Origin: Lachnospiraceae bacterium
GTDB lineage: Bacteria > Bacillota > Clostridia > Lachnospirales > Lachnospiraceae
Length of the DNA: 64,000 nt
Assembly: GCA_045112155.1 (NCBI GenBank)
Contig: JBGUHN010000043.1
Location: forward strand, 617-64,616
Direction of reading: 5' to 3'
In this document: positions 1,332 through 42,260 of the stretch, in pieces
Numbering within the stretch: position 1 is the stretch's first letter
Layout of the letters: every line of letters starts with the position of its first letter
The notes under the pieces: model-generated
What the model saw: the letters and a program-made list of their open reading frames with translations, nothing else
Told to the model about the DNA's origin: nothing
The model's database searches: none
Position numbers and translations under genes: made by a program

Positions 1332-3641
1332 GTGAGCATTGCATATAAGAGTGAAGTAAGAGTAGATGCTTTCGATAAAGTCACCGGCAGGACGAAGTAT
1401 TATGAAGATCTGATTCCGGCGGATGCACTTTACGTGCGCATCAAACATGCGGAAATTGCGCATGGCTTTGTAAAGAAGATCGATACGGAGGCGGCGGAGA
1501 GAATCCCCGGAGTTGTCAAGGTCCTGACCTGCTTTGACGTGCCGGACATTCCGTTCCCGACAGCCGGTCATCCGTGGTCAATGGACCCGTCGCATCAGGA
1601 TGTGGCTGACAGGCATTTGCTCAACCAGCATGTCCGCTACTGGGGTGATGACATTGCCGTCGTAATTGCGGAGGATGAGGTGTCTGCGTCCCAGGGTATC
1701 AGCGCGCTGAAAGTAGAGTATGAGGAGCTGCCGTTCGTTCTTGACGTGCAGAAGGCCATGGAGCCGGATGCGCCGCAGCTCCACGAAAAATTCCCGAACA
1801 ACATCCTGAAGCACACGTCCATGACGAAGGGCGATTACAAAAAAGCGATCGAGGAGCCTGGCCTCATCAAAGTTGAGGGCTGGTATGACACTCCGACTGT
1901 CCAGCACTGTCACATTGAAAATCACGGCTGCTTCGCCTACGAGGAAAATGGCCGCATGACTGTGGTCTCGTCGACGCAGATCCCCCACATCATCCGCCGC
2001 GTCGTCGGTCAGGCACTCGGCAGACCGTGGGGCAACATCCGAATTATCAAGCCTTACATCGGCGGCGGCTTCGGCAACAAGCAGGACGCCCTCTATGAGC
2101 CGCTCTGCGCATGGTGCTGCACACAGGTCGGTGGCAGATGTGTCCGGATTATCTGTTCGCGCGAGGAGACATTTGTATCCAACAGAGTTCGCCATGCGAT
2201 GCGCATCCATCTGGTGACCTGGCTCACCCCGGACGGATCGATCGCCGCCCGCAAAGTCGAGTGTTTCTCGAACCAGGGAGCTTATGCGTCCCATGGGCAT
2301 TCGATCTGCGCGAAGGCGATGGGATCATTTGCCCAGCATTATCCGTGTGCCCATATGGAATGCGATGCCTACACCGTCTTCACCAACCGCCCGACCGCCG
2401 GCGCGATGAGGGGGTATGGGATGCCGCAGGCTTCATTTGCAGACGAGTCCAATATCGAAGATTGCGCCGAGGCAGTCGGCATGGACCCGATGGAATTCAG
2501 GAATAAGAACATCATGCCGCAGGGCTTCGTGGACGGATTCTCCAAGAACGAGAACTTCTACGACACCTATCGCGAGTGCATGGCCAAGGGCGCCGCGTAC
2601 GTGGATTACGAGAAGAAGCGTGCGGAGTATGCAAATGACACCGGCCCGATCCGCCGCGGCATCGGCCTGGCAACGTTCTGGTACAACACGGGCGTTTACC
2701 CGATTTCGCTCGAGACCTCGTCCAACCGCATGTTGCTGAATCTCGACGGAACGGTCACAATGCAGTGCGGCGAGACGGAGATTGGTCAGGGCGCGGATAC
2801 CGCGTATGCGCAAATGACCGCCGAAGCCATCGGCCTCGCCAGCTACCGCGACGTTAATGTCGTGTCCTGCCAGGATACGGATATCACGCCTACGGGTCTT
2901 GGCGCTTACGCATCTCGCCAGACCTACATGGCAGGTTTCTCCATCAGCCAGACAGCTGCGCTGCTTAAGGAAAAGATTCTGAAGCATGCACAGGCTCTGA
3001 CAAGGCAGGCGCCGCTTAATCTTGATATCGTCGACGGTTATATCGTTCGCAAGGATGACAACAGAAGACTTATGAGTCTCTCCGAGCTGGCCATGACGGT
3101 CCAGTATGACCCGGTGAACAGTGACCATATCACAGCCGAGTCTACATATACAATAAGAAATAATGCGTATTCGTTCGGGTGCACATTTGCAGAAGTTGAG
3201 GTCAACATACCGATGTGCAAGGTGACAGTCACACGCATGGTCAACGTCCATGACTGCGGCAGACTGATCAACCCGGCACTGGCGGAAGCACAGGTCCACG
3301 GCGGCATGTCCATGGCGATCGGCTTCGGTGCCAGCGAGCAGCTGCTGTTCGACGAGAGGAACGGAAAGCCGCTCAATAACAACCTGCTCGACTACAAACT
3401 GTCAACTTTCATGGATCATCCCCGCCTCGAAGCCCTGTTCATCGAGAACCCGGAGCCGACCTCACCGTTCGGTACGAAGGCTCTCGGAGAGCCGCCGGCA
3501 TGTTCCGGCGCGCCGGCGATCCGCAACGCAATCAAGCAGGCGACAGGCGTAGCTATCGACCACATTCCGATCAACCCGCAGGTCCTTTACGCCGAACTCG
3601 TGAAAGCGGGCGTGATCCACGACGAATGGCAGGAGGTGTGA
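1332..3641 (+). CDS. xdhA: Xanthine dehydrogenase / aldehyde oxidase family molybdopterin-binding subunit
   Basis: 769 aa with a GTG start after an AAGGGGG RBS. Hammerhead plus Mo-binding regions with 'PYIGGGFGNK'. First gene of a Mo-FAD-FeS trio. Substrate not determinable from sequence. Confidence 0.85.
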   Translation: MSIAYKSEVRVDAFDKVTGRTKYYEDLIPADALYVRIKHAEIAHGFVKKIDTEAAERIPGVVKVLTCFDVPDIPFPTAGHPWSMDPSHQDVADRHLLNQHVRYWGDDIAVVIAEDEVSASQGISALKVEYEELPFVLDVQKAMEPDAPQLHEKFPNNILKHTSMTKGDYKKAIEEPGLIKVEGWYDTPTVQHCHIENHGCFAYEENGRMTVVSSTQIPHIIRRVVGQALGRPWGNIRIIKPYIGGGFGNKQDALYEPLCAWCCTQVGGRCVRIICSREETFVSNRVRHAMRIHLVTWLTPDGSIAARKVECFSNQGAYASHGHSICAKAMGSFAQHYPCAHMECDAYTVFTNRPTAGAMRGYGMPQASFADESNIEDCAEAVGMDPMEFRNKNIMPQGFVDGFSKNENFYDTYRECMAKGAAYVDYEKKRAEYANDTGPIRRGIGLATFWYNTGVYPISLETSSNRMLLNLDGTVTMQCGETEIGQGADTAYAQMTAEAIGLASYRDVNVVSCQDTDITPTGLGAYASRQTYMAGFSISQTAALLKEKILKHAQALTRQAPLNLDIVDGYIVRKDDNRRLMSLSELAMTVQYDPVNSDHITAESTYTIRNNAYSFGCTFAEVEVNIPMCKVTVTRMVNVHDCGRLINPALAEAQVHGGMSMAIGFGASEQLLFDERNGKPLNNNLLDYKLSTFMDHPRLEALFIENPEPTSPFGTKALGEPPACSGAPAIRNAIKQATGVAIDHIPINPQVLYAELVKAGVIHDEWQEV

Positions 3642-3644
3642 TTT

Positions 3645-4532
3645 ATGTATGATATGAAAGCACTTTATGAAGCCCGGAGCGTCGGGGAGGCAGTGGCCTT
3701 GCGCCTTGAACATCCGCAGGCTAAAATACTTGCCGGAGGTTCCGACGTTCTTGTTCAGCTGCGCGAAGGCAGACTGGCCGGCATGGAGTTTATTTCCATC
3801 TACGGGATTGATGCTCTGCGCGGTGTGACTATTGATGAGGATGAGAATATCCGAATCGGATCGCTGACGAGTTTTTCCCACATCACCCGCGACCCGATTA
3901 TCCAGAAATACTGCAATGTTCTCGGCGAGGCGGTCGATCAGGTCGGTTCTCCGCAGATCCGCAATATCGGAACGATCGGCGGCAACACCTGCAACGGCGT
4001 CACTTCCGCGGATTCGGCATCTACGCTCCACGCGTGGGAGGCCATCATCGAGCTGACGGGCAAAGACGGAATTCGCCGTCTTCCAATTAAGGACTTCTAC
4101 ATTAAAGCAGGAACAGTTGACATAAAGCCGGAGAATGGTGAGATTCAGACAGCGATCCTGATCCCGAAGGAGAGCTACGAGAACACATACGGCCACTATA
4201 TCAAGTATGGAATGCGGAACGCCATGGAGATTGCCACCCTCGGATGCAGCGTCAATGTCCGTCTTTCCGAGGACAAGTCCATCATCGAGCGGTGCCGCAT
4301 TGCCTACGGCGTTGCCGGCCCTGTGCCTATGCGATGTCCAACTTCGGAGGCCCTTGCGACCGGTCAGAGACCGTCGGCTGAGCTGTATGAGGCATTTGCA
4401 AAATCAGTCATCTCGGATATCAATCCGAGAAATTCCTGGAGATCATCCAAGGCTTTCCGCCAGCACATCGCGGTGGAGATGGCAGGAAAGTGCCTCGAAG
4501 AGGCGGTTCGCAGAGCGGGAGGTGAAGCCTGA
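3645..4532 (+). CDS. xdhB: Xanthine dehydrogenase family FAD-binding subunit
   Basis: 295 aa. FAD-binding molybdopterin-dehydrogenase motif 'ILAGGSDVLVQL'. Starts 4 nt after the preceding stop. Confidence 0.85.
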   Translation: MYDMKALYEARSVGEAVALRLEHPQAKILAGGSDVLVQLREGRLAGMEFISIYGIDALRGVTIDEDENIRIGSLTSFSHITRDPIIQKYCNVLGEAVDQVGSPQIRNIGTIGGNTCNGVTSADSASTLHAWEAIIELTGKDGIRRLPIKDFYIKAGTVDIKPENGEIQTAILIPKESYENTYGHYIKYGMRNAMEIATLGCSVNVRLSEDKSIIERCRIAYGVAGPVPMRCPTSEALATGQRPSAELYEAFAKSVISDINPRNSWRSSKAFRQHIAVEMAGKCLEEAVRRAGGEA

Positions 4533-5032: not shown

Positions 5033-5074
5033 TTGGCAGAGTGATGTACTATTGAAATATAATGGTTTTGTGGA

Positions 5075-5099
5075 GAGCGGCGCGGGGCGCCGCTCTTTT
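5075..5099 (+). terminator. Rho-independent terminator of the xdh operon
   Basis: GAGCGGCG / CGCCGCTC stem with a short G-rich loop, followed by TTTT. Lies 43 nt after the xdhC stop. Confidence 0.7.
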
Positions 5100-5105
5100 G
5101 TGCGT

Positions 5106-6010
5106 GGCGGGCAGTCATCATAGTTCAATGCGGCGTTTTTTGACTGCCCGGGTGGTATGGCGGGCAGTAGCTATCGACGAAACCTGCTTTAATCAACTGA
5201 AAGCAAGAAATTTGGCGGGCAGTCATCAAAGTTCAAAACGGCGCTTGGTGACTGTCCGGGTGGTATGGCGGGCAGTAGCTATCGACAAAATCAGCTTTAA
5301 TCAACTGAAAGCAAGAAATTTGGCGGGCAGTCGCCAAAGTTCAAAGCGGCGTATCGTGACTGCCCAGGTGGTATGGCGTACAGTCGCAATCCGTGAAATT
5401 AACTCTAAACAACTGAAAGCAAGAATAAAGGCAAACGGTCATGAAAGTTCAAAACGGTGCTTTGTGACTGCCCGGGAGTTAAGTCGGGCAGTCGCAAACA
5501 AAGAAATCAGCTCAAAATAACTGAAAGTAAGAAATCTGGCGGGCAGTCATGAAAGTTCAAAACGGCGCTTGGTGACTGCCCGGGCGATGAGTCGGGCAGT
5601 CGCAAACAAAGAAATCAGCTCAAAATAACTGAAAGCAAGAAATCTGGCGGGCAGTCATCATAGATCAAAGCGACGCTTCAAGACTGCCCGGATGGTATGG
5701 CGGGCAGTAGCTATCGATGAAATCAGCTCTAATCAACTTACGATAAAAATCTGATATAAACCAGTCTTACCATCACCGATTATCAAAATCGATAAAGGTG
5801 ACTGCTTCTAAGCAGTGAAAATAGTGGTGTTTTAAGCTGAGTTAACTAAAAATGAGCTAGCGAGACTGCCTGTGCACTGTGATCTGACCCTCGTATAGCA
5901 CTGCACATGTGCGTTATTTTTCAAAATCTACTGCCAACTTTTCGATTGCAAGATTTTGGCAGTCGTACATATCTAGAATTATAAACAAGACTGCCGGTCT
6001 TGCTTGCCAA
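5106..6010 (+). repeat. Composite repeat element copy 1: six 108-bp tandem units (5106-5750) plus conserved tail (5751-6010)
   Basis: Unit starts at 5106, 5214, 5322, 5430, 5538 and 5646. Each unit has CGGGCAGT boxes in +/-/+ orientation. The tail contains GTGACTGCTTCTAAGC and TATAGCACTGCACATGTGC, both shared with the other three copies. Confidence 0.9.
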
Positions 6011-6217: not shown

Positions 6218-7039
6218 TTAAAGGCAATAATGCTTGATCAACATTTCTACATACTGCACATTAAGTCTCTTCTTGCTCGTTTCCATTGTATAAATAAAGT
6301 TCTCTCCCGTAAAATAGCCACTCATATTATATTTTTCAATCTCGACCATTTTATCATCCCTGTAGTCATAATCATCCATCATTCCATAGTGTTCCCACAA
6401 AATCACTTTGCGTTTTCTGACATTCAGAGTTCTGAAGTCAGTGTGTACAGTACCTATATCTACAAGCTCAACAGGAAATTCGTACAGATAGGGCACGTTG
6501 TATTTGTCGAGAAGATCCGCAATTATTACTTCCGACTTTGAGCGCATGCGTTCGCCCTTTCGTGAATAGTAATTCGCATTTGTGTTGATGAAAACCTGTC
6601 CATCATATTCAACGGACAACCACTTTTTGACATATTCCTCATCAGACAGACTGACTGGGGTGATTAATTTCTGGCGGTGTTTGCCAATTTTGTCATAAAG
6701 GTCTTCCATTTGATTGCCCTGAATTTCATTTCTGAATCTTCGTATGCATTTCTTTTCAAATGCAGCCGCCTTAAGCACACGCTGATTATACTCATTTTGA
6801 GCAATTGTAAGAACTTTGTCCGAATCTTTTTTCTTGATATATTCTCCGACTTTGTCGTTGCTGTCTTTTAGCAAATAATACTGTGTCCGTCCATGGCTCG
6901 AACAAATTCTGATTCTTCCTTCAGGAATCTTTTTCCGGCTGCGATTAATTTTTCCTATTACATAATCGAGACTTTTTTCTCGGCTATCTAGCGTATCCAA
7001 TAAAGTGTTCAAGATTACTGTCCTCCTTTGTATACTCAT
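6218..7039 (-). CDS. Hypothetical protein with PD-(D/E)xK-like nuclease signature in the C-terminal half
   Basis: ORF in an AT-rich (~35% GC) islet. C-terminal pattern 'RSKSEVIIADLL..YLYEFPV..VHTDF..ILWEHYG' resembles restriction-endonuclease-fold families. ATG at 7039 preferred over the upstream TTG at 7069. No clear RBS. Confidence 0.45.
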   Translation of the reverse strand: MSIQRRTVILNTLLDTLDSREKSLDYVIGKINRSRKKIPEGRIRICSSHGRTQYYLLKDSNDKVGEYIKKKDSDKVLTIAQNEYNQRVLKAAAFEKKCIRRFRNEIQGNQMEDLYDKIGKHRQKLITPVSLSDEEYVKKWLSVEYDGQVFINTNANYYSRKGERMRSKSEVIIADLLDKYNVPYLYEFPVELVDIGTVHTDFRTLNVRKRKVILWEHYGMMDDYDYRDDKMVEIEKYNMSGYFTGENFIYTMETSKKRLNVQYVEMLIKHYCL

Positions 7040-7386
7040 TGTTTTGACTTTGCCTGCTAACGACGTCAAATAATAGATGTCGCATGATGAAAATGCGGCA
7101 TTTTATAATAGTTGAATGCAAATTATTAGCTTTGTATTAGTTTTGAAATGCAATCATAGAATTCTGCCATTATAAAAATGACAGTTATCACTTCATAAAA
7201 CAGTTATGTGAGCAATGCGTTGAAATAAGGGATTTTTGTTTGCATGAAATGCTTAAGTGAAAATGACATGCGTTTTGTCTGCTGCAAGATTAGCTGCGGA
7301 CGATTATGTGTATTATATCAGAGAGTTGACTAAAATGAAAGAAAACCATTACTTCATTTTCATGGCAAAGCATGAACGTCCACCCT

Positions 7387-10166: not shown

Positions 10167-11375
10167 ATGAATTTCTCAGTTGATTCACAGATATTGACCA
10201 ATATCGATCCCGATTTGAGCACAATTGAAAATGAGATTAAGAATTCAGCCAATGCAGCGTATGATATTGGTAAACGGATGAGGATGAAGAGCCTTGCGTC
10301 TGAGATCCTCAGTCTGAAGTTAAGGAGTAATGCGCGGACGATTATGTCTCTTGCTGACAATGTTAAGAGTTATCGGACAGCCTTGAAAAATATTACCCAG
10401 GAATATGTCACATACGAAGCAGCGATTCGAGAAGAGTTTCTGCCGGCGTCGGGTGGTGTAAGGCGCGTGAGAAACCTGACGCAGGAGTCGGGAATTTTTG
10501 ACGACCACGGAAGCTATGGCGGAGATCAGGGGGACATGCTTAGCAACCAGGCAAAGAAGCAGATTTTATGGTGGACAATTGGCGGTAATCAGGCTCTTTA
10601 TGATGCAGTACGTACGTATCCTCAGTATGCAGATTATTCGGACGGTCAGATTAAAAAATTGTTCGAAAAAATAAACAGTGAGGGCTGCGGTTACGTGTCT
10701 ATGGCAAATGCGATATTTGTGCAGTACCATGGCGATGCTGATGCATTTGAAAGAGACTTTGGGTTCCCAATGTACGATGAAAACGGAGAATACAATTTTG
10801 ACCGGCTTCTTCTCGATATTTACGCTGAGACAGATGACAAATACTTTCTTGATGAAGAATATGGTTCGACATCATATGCCAATGACGTTCTCAAGACATA
10901 TATAGGACATGAAGATGAATTCAGAAGAGAATTCGGTGTGCCATTGTATCAGAATGGTGACAATACCAGATATAATCCGGCAGCTCAGCAGGCAGTACTT
11001 GACCGGGTCGGCGATAGAACGGTTGTAGAGCAGCAGACAAAAGGTATAAATTACTTGAACTTTGAGAATCGTCTGCAACACTATCTGAAAGAAAAAAATA
11101 TTCCTGTAAGTTCTAAAGTCGAACCCTTGCCTTCAACGAAAGATGTGAAATCATACCTCGAGTCGGGTAAAAGCATTAGTGTACTTGATGAACATTTCAA
11201 TCTTTACGATGATAAAGGGAATATTGCGCATAAGAATGTCGGAGGGCATTGGATGACAATAACCGGAGTCACAGACGATGGTAGATTAGTTGTCTCATCC
11301 TGGGGTGATAAGTATTATTTAAAACCGGACGAACTTAGTGGGGTTACAATCGAGGTGACGGATATTTATGTATAA
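10167..11375 (+). CDS. Candidate polymorphic-toxin-like protein: N-terminal helical domain plus C-terminal papain-fold Cys/His domain
   Basis: 402 aa with no signal peptide. Putative catalytic Cys in 'NSEGCGYVSMANAIF' and His in 'GGHWMTITGVTDDG'. AT-rich (~38% GC) relative to flanks. Confidence 0.45.
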   Translation: MNFSVDSQILTNIDPDLSTIENEIKNSANAAYDIGKRMRMKSLASEILSLKLRSNARTIMSLADNVKSYRTALKNITQEYVTYEAAIREEFLPASGGVRRVRNLTQESGIFDDHGSYGGDQGDMLSNQAKKQILWWTIGGNQALYDAVRTYPQYADYSDGQIKKLFEKINSEGCGYVSMANAIFVQYHGDADAFERDFGFPMYDENGEYNFDRLLLDIYAETDDKYFLDEEYGSTSYANDVLKTYIGHEDEFRREFGVPLYQNGDNTRYNPAAQQAVLDRVGDRTVVEQQTKGINYLNFENRLQHYLKEKNIPVSSKVEPLPSTKDVKSYLESGKSISVLDEHFNLYDDKGNIAHKNVGGHWMTITGVTDDGRLVVSSWGDKYYLKPDELSGVTIEVTDIYV

Positions 11376-11793
11376 TGGGTTGATTTATATGTTCAAACAT
11401 CCCGGTTCAAGGCGGATCATGCCAGCTATTGCGCTCGGGTTTATTTTAAGTATGGCTGTTGTCGGGTGTGGAAAATATGATGTAAATGCGAATTTGAACG
11501 TACCGGAATCTATTGAGTCTCCTGCAGAGGAATATGTTGAGGATAATGACGGAGGTAATGTTATGACAAGAGAGTTTGTTGAAGTTGCGCTGGTCGCGGA
11601 TGATCATATTATGCTGGAAAACACAAAAGGTATTTTTTATTGGGTCGATATTAAGTATAATGAGAATTATTCAGAAGGTGATCTTCTGTGTCTTGTTTTC
11701 CGCGATAAGGAAAAACTGCAGGAAGACTGCTACAGGGTGGAGCCGATAGAGCTGTATCCGAATGACAACAGAGTTAACATACCCAGTGTATAA
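11368..11793 (+). CDS. Small lipoprotein, candidate cognate immunity protein
   Basis: 141 aa. Overlaps the upstream stop by 8 nt. Signal/lipobox 'LSMAVVGCGK'. GAGGTG RBS upstream. Same AT-rich islet. Confidence 0.45.
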   Translation: MYNGLIYMFKHPGSRRIMPAIALGFILSMAVVGCGKYDVNANLNVPESIESPAEEYVEDNDGGNVMTREFVEVALVADDHIMLENTKGIFYWVDIKYNENYSEGDLLCLVFRDKEKLQEDCYRVEPIELYPNDNRVNIPSV

Positions 11794-16354: not shown

Positions 16355-16570
16355 AGAATTTCCCTTCGATTTAAAAAGTTACTCAGTAGATTCACGAGAT
16401 TTTTTGATGTTTTATACTACTAATTATGCCATGGAATCGCAAAATGTCAATAAGGAATATTATTAAAATAGCAATAAAAGTGTATAAATAATACAATATA
16501 ATTGCAAAATGGATATTATGGATGCCGGATCATTTAATCAAGCGAGTTCGCAGTTCATTTAAGCTTGGTC

Positions 16571-17295
16571 GGCAGTCGATCTTGTGAAATAATGCACATG
16601 TGCAGTGCCATATAAGGGTCAAATCAAGGTGCAAAGGCAGTCTCAATGATTCATTTTTACTTAAATCAGCTTATTATTCAAAAAAATGTACAGCTTAGAA
16701 GCAGTCACTTTTATTGAGTTTGATATTCGATGACGGTATGACTGTCTTATATCAGATTTTCGCTCTCAGTAGAATAGAGGTGGTTTCAGCGAACGCAACT
16801 GCCCTCCATGACATCCGGGCAGTAGGGAACGCCAAATAGAAGTAAGATGACTGCCCGCCCTTATTCTTGCATTCAGTAGAATAAAGAAGATTTCAATGAT
16901 AGCGACTGCCCTCCATGACATCCGGGCAGTCTTAAGCCCCGAACTGAACTAAGATGACTGCCGGCCCTCATTCTTGCTTTCAGTAGAATAAAGTTGATTT
17001 CAATGATAGCGACTGCCCTCCATGCCACCCGGGCAGTTACGAACGCCGCATTGAACTAAGATGACTGCCCGCCCTCATTCATGCATTCAGTAGAAAAAAG
17101 TTGATTTCAGCGAACGCGACTGCCCTCCATGACACTCGGGCAGTTACGAACGCCGCATTGAACTAAGATGACTGCCCGCCCTCATTCATGCTTTCGGTAG
17201 AAAAAAGTTGATTTCAATGATAGCGACTGCCCGCCTAACGCTCGGGCAGTCACTGAACGCCGCATAAGCTCAAGATGACCGTCGCCACTCAACAA
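16571..17295 (-). repeat. Composite repeat element copy 2 (inverted): tail 16571-16750, about five 108-bp units 16751-17295
   Basis: GACTGCCCTCCATGACATCCGGGCAGT...ATGACTGCCCGCC units with a 108-bp phase (e.g. 16903, 17011, 17119, 17227). Tail holds GCACATGTGCAGTGCCATATAAGGGTC and GCTTAGAAGCAGTCAC. Confidence 0.9.
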
Positions 17296-17320
17296 AATGA
17301 GGGCTGACAAATGAGGGGTG

Positions 17321-17356
17321 AAAAAAGGGCTGCCGCACCAATCCGTGCAGCAGCCC
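17321..17356 (-). terminator. Rho-independent terminator of the 17499-19823 gene
   Basis: GGGCTGC / GCAGCCC stem. On the minus strand it is followed by TTTTTT (A-run at 17321-17326 on the plus strand). Confidence 0.65.
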
Positions 17357-19823: not shown

Positions 19824-20148
19824 CACTATATTCCTCTGTAATTTGATAATAGTGTACTAATATACAATAATAACATATCTGAGGACGAAGCGTCATACTT
19901 TCTTGATAATCATTGAAACTTCCTGAGTTAACTTTTTTCGCGGGTAAAGCATGTCTGGGTCTAAGGCGGACAGGATTCGAGCTACGCGCGAAAAGCCCCA
20001 ATGAAGCCATACGCGCGTAAAACAAGTCATGGAACAGAGCGGGAGCGCCGGGCGAAGGTGTGATTGCAATGCGCAAAGCGCCGTTTTCTTCAGTATGCAT
20101 TTACCACCCCGGATTTTTTTGTTATACTCGAAAAGTACCAGGAAACAC

Positions 20149-21147: not shown

Positions 21148-21915
21148 ATGTTAAAAGACCCGGTAAAGACTAAAGATGAAATTGTACAGTGGATCCGTGA
21201 TTATTTTGCTGCAAATGGTCCCACCTGCAGCGCCATCGTCGGCATCTCCGGAGGCAAAGACTCGAGCGTAACGGCTGCGCTCCTTAAAGAAGCGCTCGGA
21301 AAAGATCGGGTCATCGGCGTCATGATGCCCAACGGGATTCAGAGTGACATCAGCGATTCGCAGGAAATTGTTGATCTGCTCGGAATTCCGAACGTTACAG
21401 TCAACATCAAGGCAGGATTTGATGGAATGTTCGGCGCGATCAACGAAGCCCTCGCGGCTGAGCAGCCCGGCGGCATCACAAAGCTGTCCCGTGACTCTGA
21501 GATCAACCTTCCTCCGCGCCTTCGCATGAGCACACTGTATGCCATCGGGCAGGCCTGCCCGAACGGCGGCCGTGTTGCCAACACCTGCAACCGTTCCGAA
21601 GACTTCATCGGCTACTCGACAAAGTTCGGCGATGCAGCCGGCGACTTCAGCCCGCTGTCCAACCTTCTGGTCCATGAAGTCATCCAGATCGGCGAGGTGC
21701 TGGGTATCCCGGAGAGATTGACGAAGAAGGCTCCGAGCGATGGCTTGTCCGGAATGACGGATGAGGACAAGATTGGCTTCACGTACGCAGTGCTCGATCA
21801 CTATATTCTGACCGGTGAGTGTGAGGATGAGGCAACCAAGGCAAAGATTGACAGAATGCACAGGCTGAATTTGCACAAGCTGCAGCTGATGCCTGCGTAT
21901 AAACCGGCAGAATAA
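21148..21915 (+). CDS. nadE: Ammonia-dependent NAD+ synthetase
   Basis: 255 aa. PP-loop 'GISGGKDSSV'. NadE-like 'NRSE..IGY.TK.GD' region. Confidence 0.85.
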   Translation: MLKDPVKTKDEIVQWIRDYFAANGPTCSAIVGISGGKDSSVTAALLKEALGKDRVIGVMMPNGIQSDISDSQEIVDLLGIPNVTVNIKAGFDGMFGAINEALAAEQPGGITKLSRDSEINLPPRLRMSTLYAIGQACPNGGRVANTCNRSEDFIGYSTKFGDAAGDFSPLSNLLVHEVIQIGEVLGIPERLTKKAPSDGLSGMTDEDKIGFTYAVLDHYILTGECEDEATKAKIDRMHRLNLHKLQLMPAYKPAE

Positions 21916-22020
21916 GAACAGGCAGCTGCGTGCTGCAGAAGCAGATATCGGCAGAATAAGAACAGGCAGCTGCGTTATACAGAAGCAGATATCGACAGAA
22001 TACGAAAGCAGGCAGCAGGG
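21906..22020 (+). repeat. 44-bp tandem repeat x2.6
   Basis: GGCAGAATAAGAACAGGCAGCTGCG..CAGAAGCAGATATC at 21906 and 21950, with a partial third copy. The first unit contains the nadE stop codon. Confidence 0.85.
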
Positions 22021-22071
22021 AGATGTAAGCAAGTGTTTGAAACGGACACTTCTTATCGACAGAGGTTGAAA

Positions 22072-22731
22072 ATGATAAAAGGATTCATACCCAGACATGT
22101 AGGGAACCGCACAGTTCTTGGGACTCTTGACGCGATGCGCAGAGGGGAGAAAAATATGCATGGACTGCTGAGATCGAACTACGCGAATAATAGATTTGCA
22201 ATCAGGAACCACCGGGATTCCATCCGGCGGGCGCACGGACTCGTCGAAGACCAGAGAAATTACACTGACATGAAATTCGGGAAGGTGACGATGGCGTATG
22301 CGGGGTGCGAGGTATTTGCAGCCGGGAACGCGCTCAGGGCACTCACCGGGCGCCCGGTCAATTACCCGAAGCTCATCGAGCGCTTTGAGAGGGATGGCAT
22401 GATCCTGCTCGGCGGTTTCGGGACGGCACCTAAGGCAATCTCGGAGTTCTTTGAGGAGTGCGGATACGAGACAGAACTGGTGACCCATGAGGAGCTGTTC
22501 GACAGTGTTGCGGCGGTCAACGATGTGTCGATCCTGACCCTGTACAATGACGGTGAGGACATCATGCAGAAGGTCCACACAGTCTGCGTGACTCGTGAGA
22601 AGGACGGATATTACGCGCACAATGTCTATTGCGATGGCACCGTGGTCGGTCCGTGCAAGTCGATTGAGCAAATGTTATCCGACATCAACGGCGGCCGCTC
22701 CAAAGGAATCTCGCTGATTGGGATCTCTTAA
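22072..22731 (+). CDS. Papain-fold Cys/His protein (peptidase-like), paralogous to the C-terminal domain of the 10167 protein
   Basis: 'AYAGCEVFAAGNAL' (Cys) and 'LYNDGEDIMQKVHTVCVTREKDG' (His), comparable to 'LYDDKGNIAHKNVGGHWMTITGVTDDG' in the 10167 protein. GAGGT RBS before the ATG at 22072 (ORF opens at GTG 22033). Confidence 0.45.
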   Translation: MIKGFIPRHVGNRTVLGTLDAMRRGEKNMHGLLRSNYANNRFAIRNHRDSIRRAHGLVEDQRNYTDMKFGKVTMAYAGCEVFAAGNALRALTGRPVNYPKLIERFERDGMILLGGFGTAPKAISEFFEECGYETELVTHEELFDSVAAVNDVSILTLYNDGEDIMQKVHTVCVTREKDGYYAHNVYCDGTVVGPCKSIEQMLSDINGGRSKGISLIGIS

Positions 22732-22854
22732 ATTTGAGAGCAGTCAGGAGAGCAGCTGGCGGTAACATATCTCTGAATATTTGAGCTGACTGCAGTGGAG
22801 AGCTATGACTTGGGAATGTACCAGCCATATCTTTGACATGGTATACATAATATT

Positions 22855-24213
22855 ATGATCAGTAGCATCAGTATAGATAAGTTTGGGGACATCGATTCCC
22901 TGCAGCTACAATTGAAAAAATTCCACAGGGTGGACGTGAGCAGCGGGGGTGCCTCGCTGCTTACTATGTTGCTCGCGCTTAGTCAGAGCTTACTGCCGGG
23001 ATACGCATACGACTGGCAGAATGTGACGCGGCCGGGTGAGAGCAGCTTTGGAACCGGAAGGCTTGCGGTGAGGGGGAAGGTGTTTGACGGGGGGACATTT
23101 GCAAAGTGCCTTCATGAGGACAGCTCCTACTGCTCGTGCGGGGCCGAGTTCGTGATTGAGAATCCGGAGAATCCGGTGGAGGATGCTGGCTCACCTGATA
23201 GGAGCGATCATGGTGCTGCAGGGTCGGACGGGAATAACGTCGCTGATGCAGAACGGGGCAGGACCAGCGCTGCCGGTGCGAAGCAGGCGAAAAAGACCCG
23301 TCCTCTGTATGCGGACAGAAAGCGGGCCGGAGCGGACGATTTCCGTGAGCTGTGCAGGCTTTTTGGAGAGAAATTTGCAAATGTCAAAAGGTTCGCTCTT
23401 GGGATAGAAACCTCATTTGCAGAAAAGAGCGGCGACAACATTCTCTCATATCAGTTGATCAGCATACGGTGCGAGAGAGTGTGGGATGATGACATAACGA
23501 GCTTTTTCGAACTGGTGCTGTACAAAAACGGCACGAACTATGACCTTTACTGGGACGACCTGCCGGACATTCGCGGCGTAAGGACGAGTGGGCGCGCGAA
23601 AGGGTGCAACGTCCGGATGCGGAACCTTGCGGTTCTTGATATCGTGTCGGACGGAGTTCAGGACGGCGCAAGCTTTGAGGAGGTGCTGCCGAGCGTGGTC
23701 AGGATTTCGAGGATTGCGGCGGACCAGTTCGGAACGTTGAGATTTCTTGATGTCAGGTCGTGGGTGGCTGATCCGGGAGACGACTGCAATGTCGGATCGC
23801 AGGAGTGTGCTCAAGACACGTGTTGCTATGCGGAATCGCAGGAGTCAGTCAAGGGACCCTGCTACTATGTCGGTGCTCACGGTGAGTACACGGAGGCTGT
23901 AATCAGAACATACACAGAGGAAAAAATCAGGGTCGCGTGGCTGGACCCGGCGACGGGCGAGATTCGGCATGGACTTTTTGAGGAAGCCTATGAGGCTTGG
24001 AAAAATGAGATTGGCGGTCCGCGCCGAGATGAGAGCGAAAACAAAACCGGCAGCCCGCATAAGCACAGAACCAGGGCAGAGGAAGCGGCCCTTGTTCAGG
24101 GGCTGGTCCTCCGCACCGGTGAGACGCTGGTTCTGAGCGGTGATGCCGGGCTGCCGGATAAATTCTTTAATTTTCTTTCCCGTATGGGAAGACAGATTGT
24201 ACAGATTAGATAG
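22855..24213 (+). CDS. Hypothetical protein with degenerate SMC/ABC-ATPase-like termini
   Basis: 452 aa. The N-terminus 'ISSISIDKFGDIDSLQLQL..VSSGGASLLTMLLAL' looks like a RecF/SMC-type first strand plus a Walker A that has lost GK(S/T). The C-terminus 'ETLVLSGDAGL' is Walker-B-like without the acidic pair. No confident family. Confidence 0.35.
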   Translation: MISSISIDKFGDIDSLQLQLKKFHRVDVSSGGASLLTMLLALSQSLLPGYAYDWQNVTRPGESSFGTGRLAVRGKVFDGGTFAKCLHEDSSYCSCGAEFVIENPENPVEDAGSPDRSDHGAAGSDGNNVADAERGRTSAAGAKQAKKTRPLYADRKRAGADDFRELCRLFGEKFANVKRFALGIETSFAEKSGDNILSYQLISIRCERVWDDDITSFFELVLYKNGTNYDLYWDDLPDIRGVRTSGRAKGCNVRMRNLAVLDIVSDGVQDGASFEEVLPSVVRISRIAADQFGTLRFLDVRSWVADPGDDCNVGSQECAQDTCCYAESQESVKGPCYYVGAHGEYTEAVIRTYTEEKIRVAWLDPATGEIRHGLFEEAYEAWKNEIGGPRRDESENKTGSPHKHRTRAEEAALVQGLVLRTGETLVLSGDAGLPDKFFNFLSRMGRQIVQIR

Positions 24214-24223
24214 TTCCAGGCGA

Positions 24224-24335
24224 ATCAGATGATCCCTGACAGCTTAGACGTTCCAAGCAGATCAGATGACCCCTGACAGCTTAGACGTTCCAAGCAGATC
24301 AGATGATCCCTGACAGCTTTGACGCCCTAAGCTGA
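24224..24335 (+). repeat. 37-bp tandem repeat x3
   Basis: ATCAGATGA(T/C)CCCTGACAGCTTAGACGTTCCAAGCAG starting at 24224, 24261 and 24298. Confidence 0.85.
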
Positions 24336-24992
24336 TCAAATCGCTCCCATATGTTTGATGAGATACTGCATCTCAATCTGCTTGAGGAAGATTTCCATAT
24401 AACCCTTCAGGATCAGCAGATCCTGCTCCGGATACTTCTCCTCATAGTGCGTATAGTTGTCGCCGAGAATCCTGCGCAGATCCGGCGTGTTGATCAAATC
24501 CTTCTGCAGCAGGTAATCGGAGATCGCGTCAAAAAGCTGCTTGGTGACGACCTCCTCCGCCGGCTTGCCAAGTTCGCTCAGCGCGTAATCCTTGACCAGA
24601 GTCTCGAGGGCGGAGCAGTAGCCGAGGGCTGCAAGCTCAGTGTCGCCTGCCTTCTCTGAGCGCAGCGACTGATTGTACATGGCGATAAAGCGGGGAGAAA
24701 TTTTCTCCAGAGTGTCATTTGTATACTCCTTTGCGAGGCTCGGATAGATGCAGACGACTTCGGCGTCTGTGTTGCCGGATTCGCGGAGATTTGCAAAAAA
24801 GAAAGTTTTGCTGCAGCTGGTGCATTTGACGGAGGAGAGGAGGAGGTTGGCATTTGCAGAAAATGCAAATACCTCCCGCGCCGTCGACACCGCATCCGTC
24901 CCCGTTCCGCAGTGCGGACAGACCGCCGGTTTCAAATAAAACCCGGTGTAGCCCTGCTGAAATTCACTGGCATTTTTTCTGATAAAATTCAT
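24336..24992 (-). CDS. Zinc-ribbon plus DUF4145-like helical domain protein
   Basis: ATG at 24992 after an AAAGGA RBS. 'CPHCG...CTSC' four-Cys ribbon. C-terminal 'ALETLVKDY...LRRILGDNYTHY' matches the DUF4145 pattern. Confidence 0.6.
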   Translation of the reverse strand: MNFIRKNASEFQQGYTGFYLKPAVCPHCGTGTDAVSTAREVFAFSANANLLLSSVKCTSCSKTFFFANLRESGNTDAEVVCIYPSLAKEYTNDTLEKISPRFIAMYNQSLRSEKAGDTELAALGYCSALETLVKDYALSELGKPAEEVVTKQLFDAISDYLLQKDLINTPDLRRILGDNYTHYEEKYPEQDLLILKGYMEIFLKQIEMQYLIKHMGAI

Positions 24993-25020
24993 ACTGATTC
25001 CTTTCTTTTCCAAGTCTGGC

Positions 25021-25146
25021 ATGCGGTGCGGCAGCACCTATGGACGTGGTATCCTGCTGACCTTCATAGACAAAAGAACGACGTGCATACGGTGCGGCAG
25101 CACCTATGGACGAGGTACCCTGCTGCGCTTCATAGACAAAAGAACG
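25021..25146 (+). repeat. Dispersed repeat family B, copies 3 and 4 (tandem, 65-bp spacing)
   Basis: GGTGCGGCAGCACCTATGGACG(T/A)GGTA(T/C)CCTGCTG..CTTCATAGACAAAAGAACG occurs twice. Confidence 0.85.
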
Positions 25147-25178
25147 TCGTCCTTGACAGAGAGGAGACCCTGCGGACT

Positions 25179-25767: not shown

Positions 25768-25947
25768 GAATTCGGATTACAACACCGCTCTTATAGTACA
25801 TGGAAATTGTGATGTCCCTGTGACTTGGAGCAGTTTTTTTGTGCCACAAACCCGGTATGGCGCGTAAAGTTCGCATTATACCGCTCGCACGTAGGGCTGC
25901 ACTTCATAAGATGGCGTTTTTGATCTATGCCGCGGAAGAACCGAGCC

Positions 25948-26060
25948 AAATGCGTGGGAATCCTTTAGTGAAAAGATCTGTCCCAAATGCGTGAAAATCC
26001 TTTAGTGAAACGAACCGTCCTCAATGCGTGAAAATAATTCAGTGAGAATAACCGTCCCCG
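25948..26060 (+). repeat. 37-bp tandem repeat x3, overlapping the 3' end of the cyclo-ligase gene
   Basis: AATGCGTG(G/A)(G/A)AAT..TTTAGTGAAA.GA.C.GTCC with AATGCGTG at 25949, 25986 and 26023. A fourth isolated copy lies at 26712-26748. Confidence 0.8.
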
Positions 26061-29313: not shown

Positions 29314-30645
29314 TTACTCAGCAGCCTCACCGTTCACAAATGAAACCGTCATCACCGTCCCCACGCCAACCTTGCTCTCCATGTCAATCACAGCCCCATG
29401 AAGCATAGCGCTGTGCTTCACGATCGAAAGCCCGAGACCGGTTCCGCCGGTCTCTTTTGAGTGGCTCTTGTCGACGCGGTAGAAGCGCTCGAACGCGCGC
29501 TCCTGCTCCGACTCGGGTATGCCGATGCCGGTATCTTTCACTCGCAGGGTCACGACGCCGTCGACTCGGCCGACCCAGACGTCTACTTTTCCATTTTCCT
29601 TATTATACTTGATAGCGTTTTCGCAAATGTTATACACCATCTCATCCAGCGGCTGCCTGATTCCCAGTACAGATTCATGACTGCCGGACATTGTTATGCG
29701 CACATTTCGGCGCTGGGCTTCATCGGAGAGGCGGTCGCAGACTGCATTTGCAATATCATAGAGATCAAGCTGTTCCTTACTGGCATAGATTTCATTCTCA
29801 TCGAGCTTTGAGAGTCGAATTGTGTCGTCGATCAGCCGCATCAGCCGCTGGGCTTCCCGGTAAATCTTTTCGGAAAACTTCGGTATGTCCTCCTCGCGGA
29901 CCAACCCTTCCTTCATGATTTCCGCGTAACCGGAGATGGAGGTGAGAGGGGTCTTGAGTTCGTGGGAGACATTTGCAGAAAACTCTTTGCGCAGGTTCTC
30001 ATTGGCCGCCGTCTCCTTATTCTGCCGGTCGATGCGCAGCAGGAGGGGCTGGAGCTCCTCGTAGACCTCGTTCTTCAGCGGATCGTTCAGATCCAGATCG
30101 TTGATCGGGCGGACCAGGCGGTCGGCCTCCCGACGGGAACTCAATATCGCTATAAAAGTAATGACAATGGTCATCAGAATGACCAGCGGAGACAGGCTCA
30201 GCGCGATGATGAAAATGCTATCCATCTCCTTTGACAGACGCAAAATGTTTCCGTCATCGAGACGCTTGGCATAATAGAACCGCTGCACCTTGACGCTGTC
30301 GGAGCTTCTCAGGTCGGTGCCGGTGCCATAGGCCAAAGCGTCGATAATCTCCGGACGCTTGCTGTGATCCTCAAGAGTGATCTCGTCCTCCACTGAATCG
30401 TAGAGAACCTGGCCGTCGGGGCTGATCAGCGTTGCACGCGTCGTATTTTGCAGGTTGCCGAGCTGCTCGATATAGCTTCCGCCGAAGTGATTGATGCAGT
30501 CGGAGAGGTATTCGGCCTCCTGGGCGATCTCCCGCTGCATGTTCGACCGGCCTTCATGGTAGATCTCGCCGATCATGATTGAAAATGCCACCACGACCGT
30601 CAGCATAATATGTATCAATATAGAAGTTCGAATTCTTTTTCTCAT
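29314..30645 (-). CDS. Sensor histidine kinase (PhoR/VicK-like)
   Basis: Two TMs. H-box 'SHELKTPLTSISGYAE'. N, G1 and G2 boxes ('ENAIKYN', 'DTGIGIP', 'GGTGLGLSIV'). Confidence 0.85.
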   Translation of the reverse strand: MRKRIRTSILIHIMLTVVVAFSIMIGEIYHEGRSNMQREIAQEAEYLSDCINHFGGSYIEQLGNLQNTTRATLISPDGQVLYDSVEDEITLEDHSKRPEIIDALAYGTGTDLRSSDSVKVQRFYYAKRLDDGNILRLSKEMDSIFIIALSLSPLVILMTIVITFIAILSSRREADRLVRPINDLDLNDPLKNEVYEELQPLLLRIDRQNKETAANENLRKEFSANVSHELKTPLTSISGYAEIMKEGLVREEDIPKFSEKIYREAQRLMRLIDDTIRLSKLDENEIYASKEQLDLYDIANAVCDRLSDEAQRRNVRITMSGSHESVLGIRQPLDEMVYNICENAIKYNKENGKVDVWVGRVDGVVTLRVKDTGIGIPESEQERAFERFYRVDKSHSKETGGTGLGLSIVKHSAMLHGAVIDMESKVGVGTVMTVSFVNGEAAE

Positions 30646-30735
30646 GATCTATTTTTCTTAGAAGTTCGGATTCATTTTCTCATGATATATTTTCTTAGAA
30701 GTTCGGATTCGCTTTCTCATGATTTCTTCTTCTCT
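30621..30735 (-). repeat. 37-38-bp tandem triplication of the response-regulator-stop / kinase-start junction
   Basis: TAGAAGTTCG(A/G)ATTC.(T/C)TTTCTCATGAT units at 30621, 30659 and 30696. On the minus strand each encodes ATGAGAAA..GAAT.CGAACTTCT (MRKRIRTS). Confidence 0.85.
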
Positions 30736-33599: not shown

Positions 33600-34795
33600 T
33601 TAGATGAGTAGGCAGTCTCTTTTTTTATGCGGATGTGTGCTCGACTGCCAAAACGAGAATAGGCAGTATATTTTGCAAAACAATACGCATGTGCAGTGCT
33701 ATACAAGGGTCAAATCAAGTGCCTTAGGCAGTCACGCAAGATCGTTTTAAGCTTAATCAGCTGAATGATAATGAAAAAATGTAGTTCAGAAGCAGTCACC
33801 TTTATTGAGTATGGTATTCGATGACTGTATGACTTTCTTAAATCAGATTTTCGTTTTCAGTAGAACAGAGGTGGTTTCAGCGAAAGCTACTGCCCACCAT
33901 GACACGTGGGCAGTCACGAACCGCCGCATTGACCTAAGATGACTGTCCGCCATCAATCTTGCTTTCAGTAGAATAGAGTAAATTTCAATGAAAGCTACTG
34001 CCCACCCTGACATGCGGGCAGTCACGAACCGCCGCTTTGACTTAAGATGACTGCCCGCCATCAATCTTGCTTTCAGTAGATCAGAGGTGATTTCAGCGAA
34101 AGCTACTGCCCACCATGATACCCGGGCAGTCACAAACCGCCGCATTGACCTATGATGACTGCCCGCCATCATTCTTGCCTTCAGTAGATCAGAGTAAATT
34201 TCAATGAAAGCCACTGCCCGCCATGACACTCGGGCAGTCACGAACCGCCGCATTGACCTATGATGACTGCCCGCCATCAATCTTGCTTTCGGTAGAATAG
34301 AGTAAATTTCAATGAAAGCTACTGCCCGCCATGACACTCGGTCAGTCACGAACCGCCACATTGACCTAAGATGACTGCCCGCCATCATTCTTGCCTTCAG
34401 TAGAATAGAGTAAATTTCAATGAAAGCCACTGCCCACGATGATACTCGGGCAGTCACGAACCGCCGCATTGACCTAAGATGACTGCCCACCAACATTCTT
34501 GCTTTCAGTAGAATAGAGTAAATTTCAATGAAATCTACTGCCCGCCATGACACGCGGTCAGTCACGAACCGCCGCATTGATCTAAGATGACTACCCGCCA
34601 TCAATCTTGCTTTCAGTAGAATAGAGTAAATTTCAATGAAATCTACTGCCCGCCATGCAACTCGAGCAGTCACGAACCGCCACATTGACCTAAGATGACT
34701 GTCCGCCAACATTCTTGCTTTCAGTAGAATAGAGGTGATTTCAGCGAAAGCCACTGCCCGCCATCATCCTTGTTCAGTAGAATAGAGAAGAATTC
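33600..34795 (-). repeat. Composite repeat element copy 3 (inverted): tail 33600-33842, about nine 108-bp units 33843-34795
   Basis: Same unit and tail as the other copies (GCATGTGCAGTGCTATACAAGGGTC, CAGAAGCAGTCAC). The spurious 303-codon ORF 33843-34754 runs through the array. Confidence 0.9.
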
Positions 34796-34831
34796 AATAA
34801 AAGAGACTGCCGCATAAATGCAGCAGCCTCT
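34795..34831 (-). terminator. Rho-independent terminator of the Hpt gene
   Basis: AGAGGCTGC / GCAGTCTCT stem on the minus strand, followed by TTTATTG. Directly abuts the first repeat unit. Confidence 0.55.
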
Positions 34832-41173: not shown

Positions 41174-41254
41174 TTATAGGTAGAATTATTCTTTTGTTCA
41201 TGCCTGGAGGCTAATAACAGATAGAGTTATTCTTTTATTCATGCTTGAGGATTT

Positions 41255-42260
41255 AGTGGCTGCCGCGCTGGGTGGCGTAGATGGCAGTCGCTATCATTGA
41301 AATCAACTCTAATCTACTGAAGGCTAGAATGATGGCATTCGGTCATAAAAGTTCAAAATGGTGTTTCGTGACTGCCCGCGTATTTTGCGGGCAGTCGTTT
41401 TTATTGAAATTAGCTCTATTCTACTGAAGGCAAGAATGCTGGCATTCGGTCATCTTTACTCAAAGCGGCGTTTCATGACTGCCCGGGTGTTGTGGCGGGC
41501 AGTCGCTAACATTGAAATCAGCTCTATTCTACTGAAGGCAAGAATGCTGGCAATCGGTCATGAAAGTTCCAAACGGGGTTCCGTGACTGCCGGAGTGTCA
41601 TGGAGGGCAGTAGCTTTCATTGAAATCACCTCAATTCTACTGAAGGCAAGAATGCTGGCAATCGGTCATGAAAGTTCAAAACGGGGCTCCGTGACTGCCG
41701 GGGTATCATGGAGGGCAGTAGCTTTCATTGAAATCACCTCAAATCTACTGAAGGCAAGAATGCTGGCAATCGGTCATGAAAGTTCCAAACGGGGTTCCAT
41801 GACTGCCCGAGTTGAGAAACGGGCAGTCGCGTTCGCTGAAACCAACTTTTGTCTACTGCTGATCAAAAACTCATATAAGAACGTCTTACCATCACATAAT
41901 ATCAAATTCAGAAAAATAGACTGCTTCTAGGCTTTCGTTTTTGGAGGGCGAACAGCGGATTTACCTAAGAATGAGTCAGCGTGACTGCCCTGGGCAGATG
42001 ATTCAACTCTCGCATGGCACTGCACATATGTGATATTTTGCAAGATCGACTGCCGGCTTTACTTTGCGCAATCCAGCCGGATTGAACCGATTAGCGAAGG
42101 CAGCAATCACACATCAAAATCAAGATTTTGCTGCCTCCGCCATCGACCCGATGAAACCCACCAAGCGCAAAGGCAGCAACCGCGCCTTGGAAGCAGGATT
42201 TTGCTGCCTCCGCCATCGACCCGATGAAATTCAACAAGAGCAAGGCAGCCATAAACCCAA
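41255..42260 (+). repeat. Composite repeat element copy 4: about 5.5 108-bp units (41255-41860), tail (41861-42060), GGCAGC-box extension (42061-42260)
   Basis: Units carry the array-specific box-a variant GGCA(A/T)TCGGTCAT. The tail has CATGGCACTGCACATATGTG and GACTGCTTCTAGGC. Direct repeat GATTTTGCTGCCTCCGCCATCGACCCGATGAAA at 42124 and 42197. Confidence 0.9.

Follow-up and report, generated by a model that had tools for sequence, protein, structure and literature searches.

A candidate new family of composite interspersed repeats, with a terminator-like head, tandem 108-bp units and a conserved tail, in rumen and gut Lachnospiraceae

Here we describe a repeat element that occurs four times in a 64,000-nt stretch of DNA from a Lachnospiraceae bacterium (the whole stretch is hereafter called the window). 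In its full form the element consists, in this order, of a head, 1–12 units of 107/108 bp and a tail of ~200–230 bp. We consider it probable, at roughly 60%, that it represents a new family of composite interspersed repeats, non-coding and non-autonomous, which are carried by the chromosomes of Lachnospiraceae from rumen and gut and are similar to BOX and SPRITE elements and to REP/BIME clusters. A first-pass annotation of the window had already recognized the tandem array and the tail, whereas the conserved 5' module, a terminator-like hairpin, was absent from its description.

Arrays were located with Tandem Repeats Finder (TRF) and with a hidden Markov model (HMM) built from the six units of copy 1. 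TRF reported array 1 at 5105-5738 on the plus strand (period 108, 5.9 copies, 81% matches), array 2 at 16766-17262 on the minus strand (period 107), array 3 at 33855-34764 on the minus strand (period 108, 8.4 copies) and array 4 at 41283-41809 on the plus strand (period 108, 4.9 copies). With the unit HMM the window holds ~25 units of 107/108 bp, and 24 aligned units have a mean per-column identity of 82%. Copy 1 comprises six 108-bp units (5106..5753, plus strand; TRF, unit HMM and alignment), and the HMM placed their starts at 5106, 5214, 5322, 5430, 5538 and 5646, the very coordinates, in exact 108-bp phase, that had been annotated before. Copy 2 has five 107-bp units (16753..17287, minus strand), the first with a degenerate box 1 (GGCGACGGTCAT); copy 3 has one or more partial units followed by eight full 108-bp units (33844..34811, minus strand; unit HMM); and copy 4 has five units (41253..41872, plus strand), beginning mid-unit at a hairpin that resembles the box 2/box 3 hairpin described below, and its box 1 is degenerate (GGCAATCGGTCAT). 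The sequence CGGGCAGT occurs 42 times in the window, every time within one of the four arrays, compared with 1.4 +/- 1.2 occurrences (maximum 5) in shuffled sequences. Together the four copies measure ~3.6 kb, ~6% of the window, somewhat less than the ~4 kb given at first.

The same element was found well beyond the window. A scan of one genome per species with the exact tail pattern GACTGCC-N27-GCACTGCACAT matched 28 stretches, of which 23 carry the element according to the unit and tail HMMs; their hosts are metagenome-assembled genomes (MAGs) from rumen, from the ileum of goat and sheep and from gut, and bear the label Lachnospiraceae or Eubacterium sp. The remaining five matches, including Anaerolineales, Pelomonas and Pseudomonadota, were without HMM support and were discarded as chance. 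When metagenome contigs were scanned with the unit pattern, 53 of 56 stretches had the element, so that the window, MAG and metagenome loci together supplied 89 arrays and 301 near-full-length units. The architecture stays constant across loci, species and samples. Indeed, 77 of the 79 arrays with at least 200 nt of contig past the last unit run directly into the tail, which bears out the earlier proposal that array and tail form one composite element; the two exceptions are broken at the unit/tail junction by insertion sequences (IS), Mutator-family in locus L074 and IS3-like in L065. Complete arrays contain 2–12 unit matches, and a single unit precedes the tail in L066. Outside the array, the window is 99.7% identical to JBGVKR010000062.1 (GCA_045123875.1), which has five units compared with six here.

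Like the first-pass annotation, we were unable to assign the element to a described family. Searches of Rfam with gathering and E-value thresholds, covering the window and 12 related loci, returned only tRNAs, in the 12 related loci and none in the window, and the best sub-threshold match was to RAGATH-27 (23 bits vs a threshold of 76). Neither plasmids nor phages gave a BLAST match, viral contigs gave none in pattern scans, and a literature search by motif and topic returned unrelated matches only.

What is most strictly conserved in the unit is a set of short boxes. In 85 units from several species the CAGT/ACTG cores of four boxes are invariant (box 1 CAGTCAT, box 2 RTGACTGCCCGG, box 3 GGGCAGT and box 4 ACTGAA), as are the ACTG/CAGT columns in 38 non-redundant units. 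The +/-/+ layout initially reported, GGCGGGCAGTCAT, ~22 nt, GTGACTGCCCGG, 7 nt and GGCGGGCAGT, was recovered, but not every unit has all three cores perfect: copy 1 has 10 of its 12 cores on the plus strand and 4 of its 6 on the minus strand. Box 2 can pair with either neighbour, with box 1 through CAGTCAT/ATGACTG or with box 3 through ACTGCCC/GGGCAGT, and because both stems use the same ACTG the two are mutually exclusive. This much of the alternative-hairpin proposal stands, but the GGG of box 1 is lineage-specific and not conserved across the family; from the aligned units, the three-box alternative hairpin belongs to certain lineages and is not a family invariant. RNAalifold, applied to the 38 non-redundant units, predicted the box 2/box 3 stem alone (6 bp, invariant) with 0 compensatory pairs, and mutual information among unit columns gave lineage signal only. 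Practically every one of the 301 units contains the box 2/box 3 hairpin, ACTGCC(C)-N12-14-(G)GGCAGT, which has the dimensions of a 20–40-bp extragenic palindrome. Folding of the units favours the sense over the antisense strand (-30.6 vs -26.9 kcal/mol; sense stabler in 232 of 301), an asymmetry that base composition alone could explain. The box centres lie at alignment columns 7.5, 40.5, 60.5 and 93.5, giving spacings of 33, 20, 33 and 22 bp; on a post-hoc reading these are 3.1, 1.9, 3.1 and 2.1 helical turns, which would have all boxes facing one side of B-DNA, and TRF also finds a half-period of 52–55 bp. Unit-to-unit periods were 108 (131 cases), 107 (64), 106 (11) and 109 bp (3), 37% of them not multiples of three, at most 41 of 85 units are open in any one reading frame and variation is without codon periodicity; the units are therefore not coding.

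The tail, by comparison, is of ~200–230 bp and conserves five direct (G)ACTGC boxes, and no consensus RNA fold was found in 56 non-redundant tail sequences. In copy 1 it occupies 5746..5996 on the plus strand (HMM match 5746-5936, with isolated GGCAGT/ACTGCC boxes on to ~5996); in copy 2, 16530..16760 on the minus strand (HMM match 16760-16570, then two terminal ACTGC(C/G)-box segments to ~16530); in copy 3, 33605..33851 on the minus strand (HMM match 33851-33661, then more GGCAGT/ACTGCC boxes); and in copy 4, 41865..42055 on the plus strand (tail HMM). The four align without gaps over ~190–220 nt, in agreement with the earlier view that the tail is kept in all copies, but the full 10-bp palindrome GCACATGTGC listed as part of it is found only in copies 1 and 2.

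The module that had gone unnoticed, the head, is composed of a 12–15-bp GC-rich hairpin, a T-run and the junction TTTTGYTGAGTGG. The junction motif lies 5' of the first unit in 38 of 74 arrays, and in ~15 independent loci it is preceded by the hairpin GGGGCTG(C/T)CGCA-loop-TGCGGC(A/G)GCC; 19 of the 74 arrays begin mid-unit, such that 5' ends vary and the 3' tail is constant. Within the window, copies 2 and 3 carry the family hairpin. In copy 2 this is GGGCTGCTGCAC..GTGCGGCAGCCC with T6 (17321..17356, minus strand; RNA fold -29.3 kcal/mol, z -6.9; family head alignment), followed by the junction motif as TTTTGTTGAGTGGC, and in copy 3 it is GAGGCTGCTGCA..TGCGGCAGTCTC with a T-run (34799..34830, minus strand; -23.5 kcal/mol, z -9.7). 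Directly 5' of array 1, in the usual head position, there is an intrinsic-terminator hairpin with a T-run (5072..5099, plus strand; -21.3 kcal/mol, z -3.5), but its stem sequence is not that of the repeat family; folding of the window heads thus ranges from -21 to -29 kcal/mol, with z from -3.5 to -9.7. Between the copy-2 head hairpin and the first unit we also observed a 14-nt tandem repeat, AAAATGAGGGCTGA (2.3 copies, 17294-17325), which duplicates the TCAGCCCTCATTTT junction.

Covariation supports the head stem. Among 26 heads from different loci RNAalifold found 12 pairs, four of them with compensatory double changes, and the alignment holds ~60 G·U vs ~7 A·C cells, an excess from which it follows that it is the element's sense strand on which the stem is maintained. 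In L016 the head stands behind a separate terminator that belongs to the upstream gene, and therefore the head is part of the element rather than of the gene. Its hairpin can be likened to the box 2/box 3 hairpin of the unit (GGCTGCCGC/GCGGCAGCC vs GACTGCCCG/CGGGCAGTC), with a T-run added. As far as fold prediction can tell, the head has the hallmarks of an intrinsic terminator, that is, a stable GC-rich stem on the sense strand, a U-tract and a place downstream of a co-oriented gene.

The position of the element relative to genes is equally polar. Of 22 nearest upstream genes, 17 are co-oriented with the element, and of 26 nearest downstream genes, 16 are convergent. Each of the four window copies shares the orientation of the gene upstream, on both strands, under a GC skew that is positive throughout, so the polarity is tied to transcription and not to replication. 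The neighbours themselves are unremarkable: 140 neighbour proteins fall into 127 Pfam families (metabolism, transport, regulation; diverse housekeeping), with one transposase and no recurrent gene family. Part of an operon or defence system was rejected as an identity for the element, the neighbours being diverse and ordinary, as was a type III toxin-antitoxin (ToxI-like) system, since the downstream genes are mutually unrelated and so often convergent. Genes in the window encode xanthine-dehydrogenase subunits, glycosyltransferases, an amylase, two-component systems, a pilin, a sortase and polysaccharide synthesis proteins; the pair of large genes for the xanthine-dehydrogenase subunits (1332-4532) was identified by precomputed domain hits on identical genes in L085. 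A 283-aa gene without Pfam or NCBIfam match converges on the copy-1 tail and is conserved there in L002, L085 and L087.

Several candidate signals within the element were considered and rejected. The tail does not appear to be two decayed units, local similarity being weak (E >= 0.02). A sigma-54 promoter at TGGCACTGCACATGTGC in the tail would have its -12 GC shifted by 2 nt, and GG is missing in copies 1 and 3; a small RNA starting at the extended -10-like TGATATAAG at the unit/tail junction was rejected as the motif is missing in many copies and there is no common terminator; and a small open reading frame (ORF) at CACATGTG is without a ribosome-binding site, varies in length and is lost in copy 4. 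On the minus strand of copy 4 (41418-41769) each unit has a sigma-70-like match, TTGCCA-16-TAGAAT (9–10 of 12 positions), which arises from the degenerate box 1 of this lineage, faces the upstream histidine kinase gene and could give antisense transcription; as a family promoter it was dismissed, being a lineage-specific by-product absent from the other window copies.

Comparison of related strains revealed that arrays change in length. At the copy-2 locus the window has five units, L093 six and L102 three, and in L099 (ruminal_MAG_65) a head and 0.7 of a decayed unit are left without a tail, an internal deletion remnant. At the copy-1 locus the window has six units and L085 and L087 five, and several strains carry unrelated genes there. 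Strains with different unit numbers have flanks that are 98–99% identical. Within arrays unit identity is 0.80, compared with 0.70 between arrays, indicating partial homogenization within arrays. The tail can also vary: its last segment, ACTGCCGACCGCGCTAAATAA (22 nt, starting with an ACTGCC box), is repeated seven times in tandem in L102 (1118-1260), and two diverged copies of it lie at 16577-16530 of the window. Segments that begin with an ACTGCC box thus seem prone to tandem amplification.

A number of insertion sequences were seen at or near these loci. Those within the element have entered at the unit/tail junction (AATCTGATATAAG) or close to it, and around tail position 70 (L074 1430-2830, L002 ~2838-2862, L007 ~85-195 and L065 1500-2300), and the Mutator/IS256-family element of L074 has matching ends beside the tails in L002 and L007. 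REPs serve as targets for some IS elements, and by analogy the tail looks like an IS target too. In L087 a poly-G-rich low-complexity stretch (5189-5290), followed by a fragment like the L074 IS end, interrupts the tail; it is probably an artefact of assembly or of basecalling where an IS has inserted. L102, a strain 98% identical to the window, carries at 1415-3467 an IS200/IS605-type element (also in L103) with an HIH-motif TnpA on the minus strand and a 379-aa TnpB (OrfB_IS605), lying ~150 bp past the copy-2 tail between the promoter and the start of an HTH-Uma2 gene. Y1 HUH transposases therefore exist in this lineage; comparison by eye of the end hairpins of this IS with the boxes of the repeat gave no convincing similarity.

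A second hairpin family shares some of these loci. It consists of TTACGCGC, a ~22-nt loop with AAAGC..GAATG, and GCGCGTAA; the window has a single copy (19983-20019) between PQQ-propeller and HAD hydrolase genes, and L073 has one (3472-3508) just upstream of a GGCAGT-type array. At the copy-1 locus, where L086 and L092 have a different segment in place of the element, homology with L092 passes through the front hairpin of copy 1 (5072..5099) and breaks at window position 5110, in the first bases of the element. Exactly at this site L092 has eight TTACGCGC-N22-GCGCGTAA hairpins (1289-1817), the first five ~73 bp apart, with a linker, AAAGCARGAATG, that resembles AAAGCAAGAATG of the unit. Judging by these motifs, the TTACGCGC/GCGCGTAA repeats may be a sister family in which both palindrome arms have been swapped.

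How might such an element be maintained and spread? The head, once transcribed on the sense strand, is predicted to act as an intrinsic terminator of the upstream gene, which would explain why only co-oriented insertion behind genes is tolerated. The boxes, strictly conserved and without compensatory variation, are putative recognition sites of a trans-acting, sequence-specific protein. Candidates for such a protein would be an enzyme responsible for making or moving the element and a DNA-binding protein of the host. Arrays would expand and shrink via slippage or unequal recombination, and new copies would arise via trans-mobilization or gene conversion.

Spread is the weak point of this account, since neither a clean insertion nor a target duplication nor a cognate enzyme came to light, and a number of observations weigh against it. 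Copies occur at orthologous sites in several species, which a host function or gene conversion fits as well as a selfish element does. At orthologous loci, tails are on average somewhat more conserved than fourfold-degenerate flanking sites (0.857 vs 0.803, the tail higher in 16 of 25 pairs), but the spread is wide (0.93 vs 0.54 and 0.93 vs 0.76, but also 0.67 vs 0.80), a pattern that fits weak constraint plus gene conversion among copies; the copy-4 tail, for example, is 93% identical to that of L062, where the protein of the downstream gene is only 61% identical. Searching via flanking proteins uncovered no clean pair of filled and empty sites, only replacements and the one deletion remnant. 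No target-site duplication was found. Head and tail have no terminal inverted repeat in common (inverted alignment 18 vs 14.6 +/- 2.1, maximum 24, in shuffles). Finally, no candidate for a cognate protein was identified: no RAYT (Y1 HUH) transposase was found by Pfam in 40 window ORFs or among the 140 neighbour proteins, nor, as the first reading of the window had noted, do the 40 main window ORFs include any transposase, integrase or cas domain.

Of the other explanations, the one that survives best, although we regard it as clearly less probable than a family of interspersed repeats, is that the copies have a host function at the DNA level and are kept by selection, the boxes loading or titrating a sequence-specific DNA-binding protein (nucleoid-associated, centromere-like or regulatory). 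Boxes that are invariant without compensatory change, a tail of direct boxes lacking both pairing partners and an RNA fold, and box spacings near whole helical turns (post hoc), together with the half-period, would all suit such a platform, as would the orthologous positions across species and those tails that lie far above synonymous sites. Yet a DNA platform gives no reason for co-orientation with the upstream gene or for a strand-specific RNA hairpin at the start; unit number varies freely, L099 has lost array and tail in an otherwise syntenic genome, other tails fall below synonymous sites, and no candidate protein stands beside any copy.

It is also conceivable, if rather unlikely, that the element is the product of an undescribed strand-specific hairpin mechanism, in which a trans-acting nuclease or recombinase (e.g. 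HUH) would recognize the ACTGCC boxes and, with the tail as its anchor, copy or re-initiate 5'-ward beside terminators. This would fit the 3' tail that is always complete and the variable 5' ends, often mid-unit; the tandem amplification of box-initial segments, both the 108-bp units and the sevenfold 22-nt segment of L102; and the possible sister family with its similar linker at exactly the copy-1 site of another strain. If true, it would be a Firmicute counterpart of REP/RAYT with a different tag and product architecture.

We find it improbable that the copies are genes for a long non-coding RNA, or yield a long non-coding RNA derived from a 3' untranslated region, whose hairpins would sequester an RNA-binding protein (CsrB-like) or be processed to unit-length RNAs (ToxI-like). 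Polarity does follow transcription, and the units not only fold better on the sense strand but have 48 G·T vs 19 A·C in the box 1/box 2 stem; the folding asymmetry, however, could stem from base composition alone. Moreover, with a strong terminator-like head at the start little read-through would be expected, no conserved promoter precedes the units, the TGATATAAG junction motif is missing in many copies, and no conserved 3' terminator lies past the tail. RNAalifold yields no tail structure and, in the unit, one invariant 6-bp stem without covariation, and many dispersed copies per genome with no conserved downstream gene are unlike a sponge RNA or a type III antitoxin.

The view of the element as a classical miniature inverted-repeat transposable element, or as paired transposon ends, that a DDE transposase would move via terminal inverted repeats is largely refuted. 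The idea is suggested by copies 3 and 4, which are inverted around a 6.4-kb two-component gene block, by copies 1 and 2, which are likewise inverted, and by the direct, irregularly spaced boxes of the tail, which recall the ends of Tn7- or Mu-type elements with their multiple transposase-binding sites. Yet head and tail are without a common terminal inverted repeat, the tails point outward in one window pair and inward in the other, most 8-kb loci are single-copy and paired copies can be direct (L079, L065); no target-site duplication was seen, there is no transposase in the window and none recurs near copies.

A protein-coding tandem repeat, a CRISPR-like array or an assembly artefact can be dismissed: although 108 is divisible by three and an ORF of 303 aa (33843..34754) runs through copy 3, the mixed periods and closed frames speak against coding; the entire 108-bp unit is repeated at 70–90% identity with neither unique spacers nor cas genes; and the same architecture, with differing unit numbers, recurs in independent NCBI, ENA, JGI and Logan assemblies, with units that differ by 12–30% and hence are not collapsed or duplicated reads.

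Taking the copies as a family of interspersed repeats, REP/BIME or REPIN clusters had been offered as the nearest analogy; this holds, but BOX (A-Bn-C) and SPRITE elements are closer in architecture than REPINs. BOX elements of Streptococcus have the form boxA-(boxB)n-boxC, with boxE/boxF types in S. suis (PMC3049150). The present family resembles them in its tandem middle modules, variable in number and framed by a fixed module at the 5' and at the 3' end, its many dispersed intergenic copies in a Firmicute, its strain differences in length by gain or loss of middle modules, its enrichment downstream of coding sequences and its lack of a gene of its own. By description it is set apart by units of 108 instead of 45 nt and a tail of ~200 instead of 50 nt; its end modules, unlike those of BOX, have no terminal inverted repeat, its 5' module is a terminator-like hairpin, its tail is made of direct boxes without a fold, and it belongs to a different bacterial order. 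Pneumococcal BOX, RUP and especially the terminator-like SPRITE repeats have the same distribution relative to genes (Croucher et al., PMC3049150). SPRITE, too, is a dispersed terminator-like repeat near gene 3' ends, possibly co-opted as a terminator, but it is a single hairpin, whereas here the hairpin is only the first module of an element with array and tail.

With REP/BIME clusters the family shares imperfect, GC-rich palindromes that are short and alternate in orientation, mosaic tandem clusters whose linkers are conserved (as in BIME-2), positions outside genes and often behind them, putative recognition by sequence and not by pairing alone, and IS insertions, here in the tail. REP, BIME and REPIN elements have RAYT (Y1 HUH) transposases (PMC3116915, PMC3733652), and what defines REPs is a conserved tetranucleotide, GTAG (or CGTC), on one side of the palindrome (PMC3733652). 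In contrast, GTAG follows box 3 in only ~45% of the present units (the base after CAGT, column 64, is A in ~45%, C in ~35% and T or G in the rest) and there is no CGTC tag; the unit is 108 bp long with four boxes, head and tail are single and polar, and no RAYT was found in the window. The closest architecture is therefore that of BOX with a SPRITE-like first module, and the logic is near that of BIME clusters; the family lacks both the conserved tag that defines REP (GTAG) and the terminal inverted repeat that defines BOX. A further relative in form is the MIRU type of minisatellite in Mycobacterium, with tandem units of 40–100 bp at dispersed intergenic loci, fixed orientation to flanking genes and strain-variable copy number. 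MIRUs sit inside operons, and their short ORFs overlap the flanking stop and start codons. The present arrays similarly have tandem units at many intergenic loci, an orientation fixed by genes and a number that varies between strains, but they follow terminators, have no conserved ORF and possess head and tail modules.

Work on REP/BIME, BOX and MIRU repeats has shaped ideas on mRNA stability, termination, nucleoid structure and domesticated transposases, and such repeats are used in strain typing, yet descriptions of anything comparable are almost lacking for the uncultured Lachnospiraceae that predominate in the communities of rumen and gut. Unit number offers a ready-made strain marker. Logan contigs end within the arrays, as the repeat breaks short-read assemblies, which makes the arrays a known source of MAG fragmentation. 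Polarity and strictly conserved boxes of 6–7 nt make the search for a cognate binding or mobilizing protein concrete. Should the element be only neutral or selfish DNA, its description would be a useful annotation rather than a discovery.

Other features of the window may also be of use to annotators. Several sizeable ORFs without Pfam or NCBIfam match, one of them the 283-aa gene at the copy-1 tail mentioned above, lie at 6218-7069 (minus strand), 10167-11793, 21151-25037 and 49263-50753. Just past the copy-4 tail, two repeats of ~70 nt (42095-42235), each with a hairpin GGCAGCAA..TTTTGCTGCC followed by TCCGCCATCGACCCGATGAAA, precede the gene of a 726-aa repeat-rich surface-type protein. A 74-bp tandem repeat (31673-31904, 3.1 copies) lies between divergent genes, upstream of the one for a solute-binding protein at 31930; its units carry the hairpin AAAGGCAAC..GTTGCCTTT and are unrelated in sequence to the GGCAGT family. 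Between genes for a CheB/CheR hybrid kinase and an Hpt protein there is a 45-bp tandem repeat (35271-35428, 3.5 copies). The 178-aa ORF at 34878-35414 probably starts later than called, given that the orthologues in L028 and L067 measure 120 aa and that residue 101 is where the Hpt domain starts, and this later start would make the 45-bp repeat intergenic. Further repeats of period 37 (24201-24338, 25936-26058 and 30621-30723), 44 (21905-22016) and 66 (25019-25150) make this segment unusually rich in minisatellite-like arrays.

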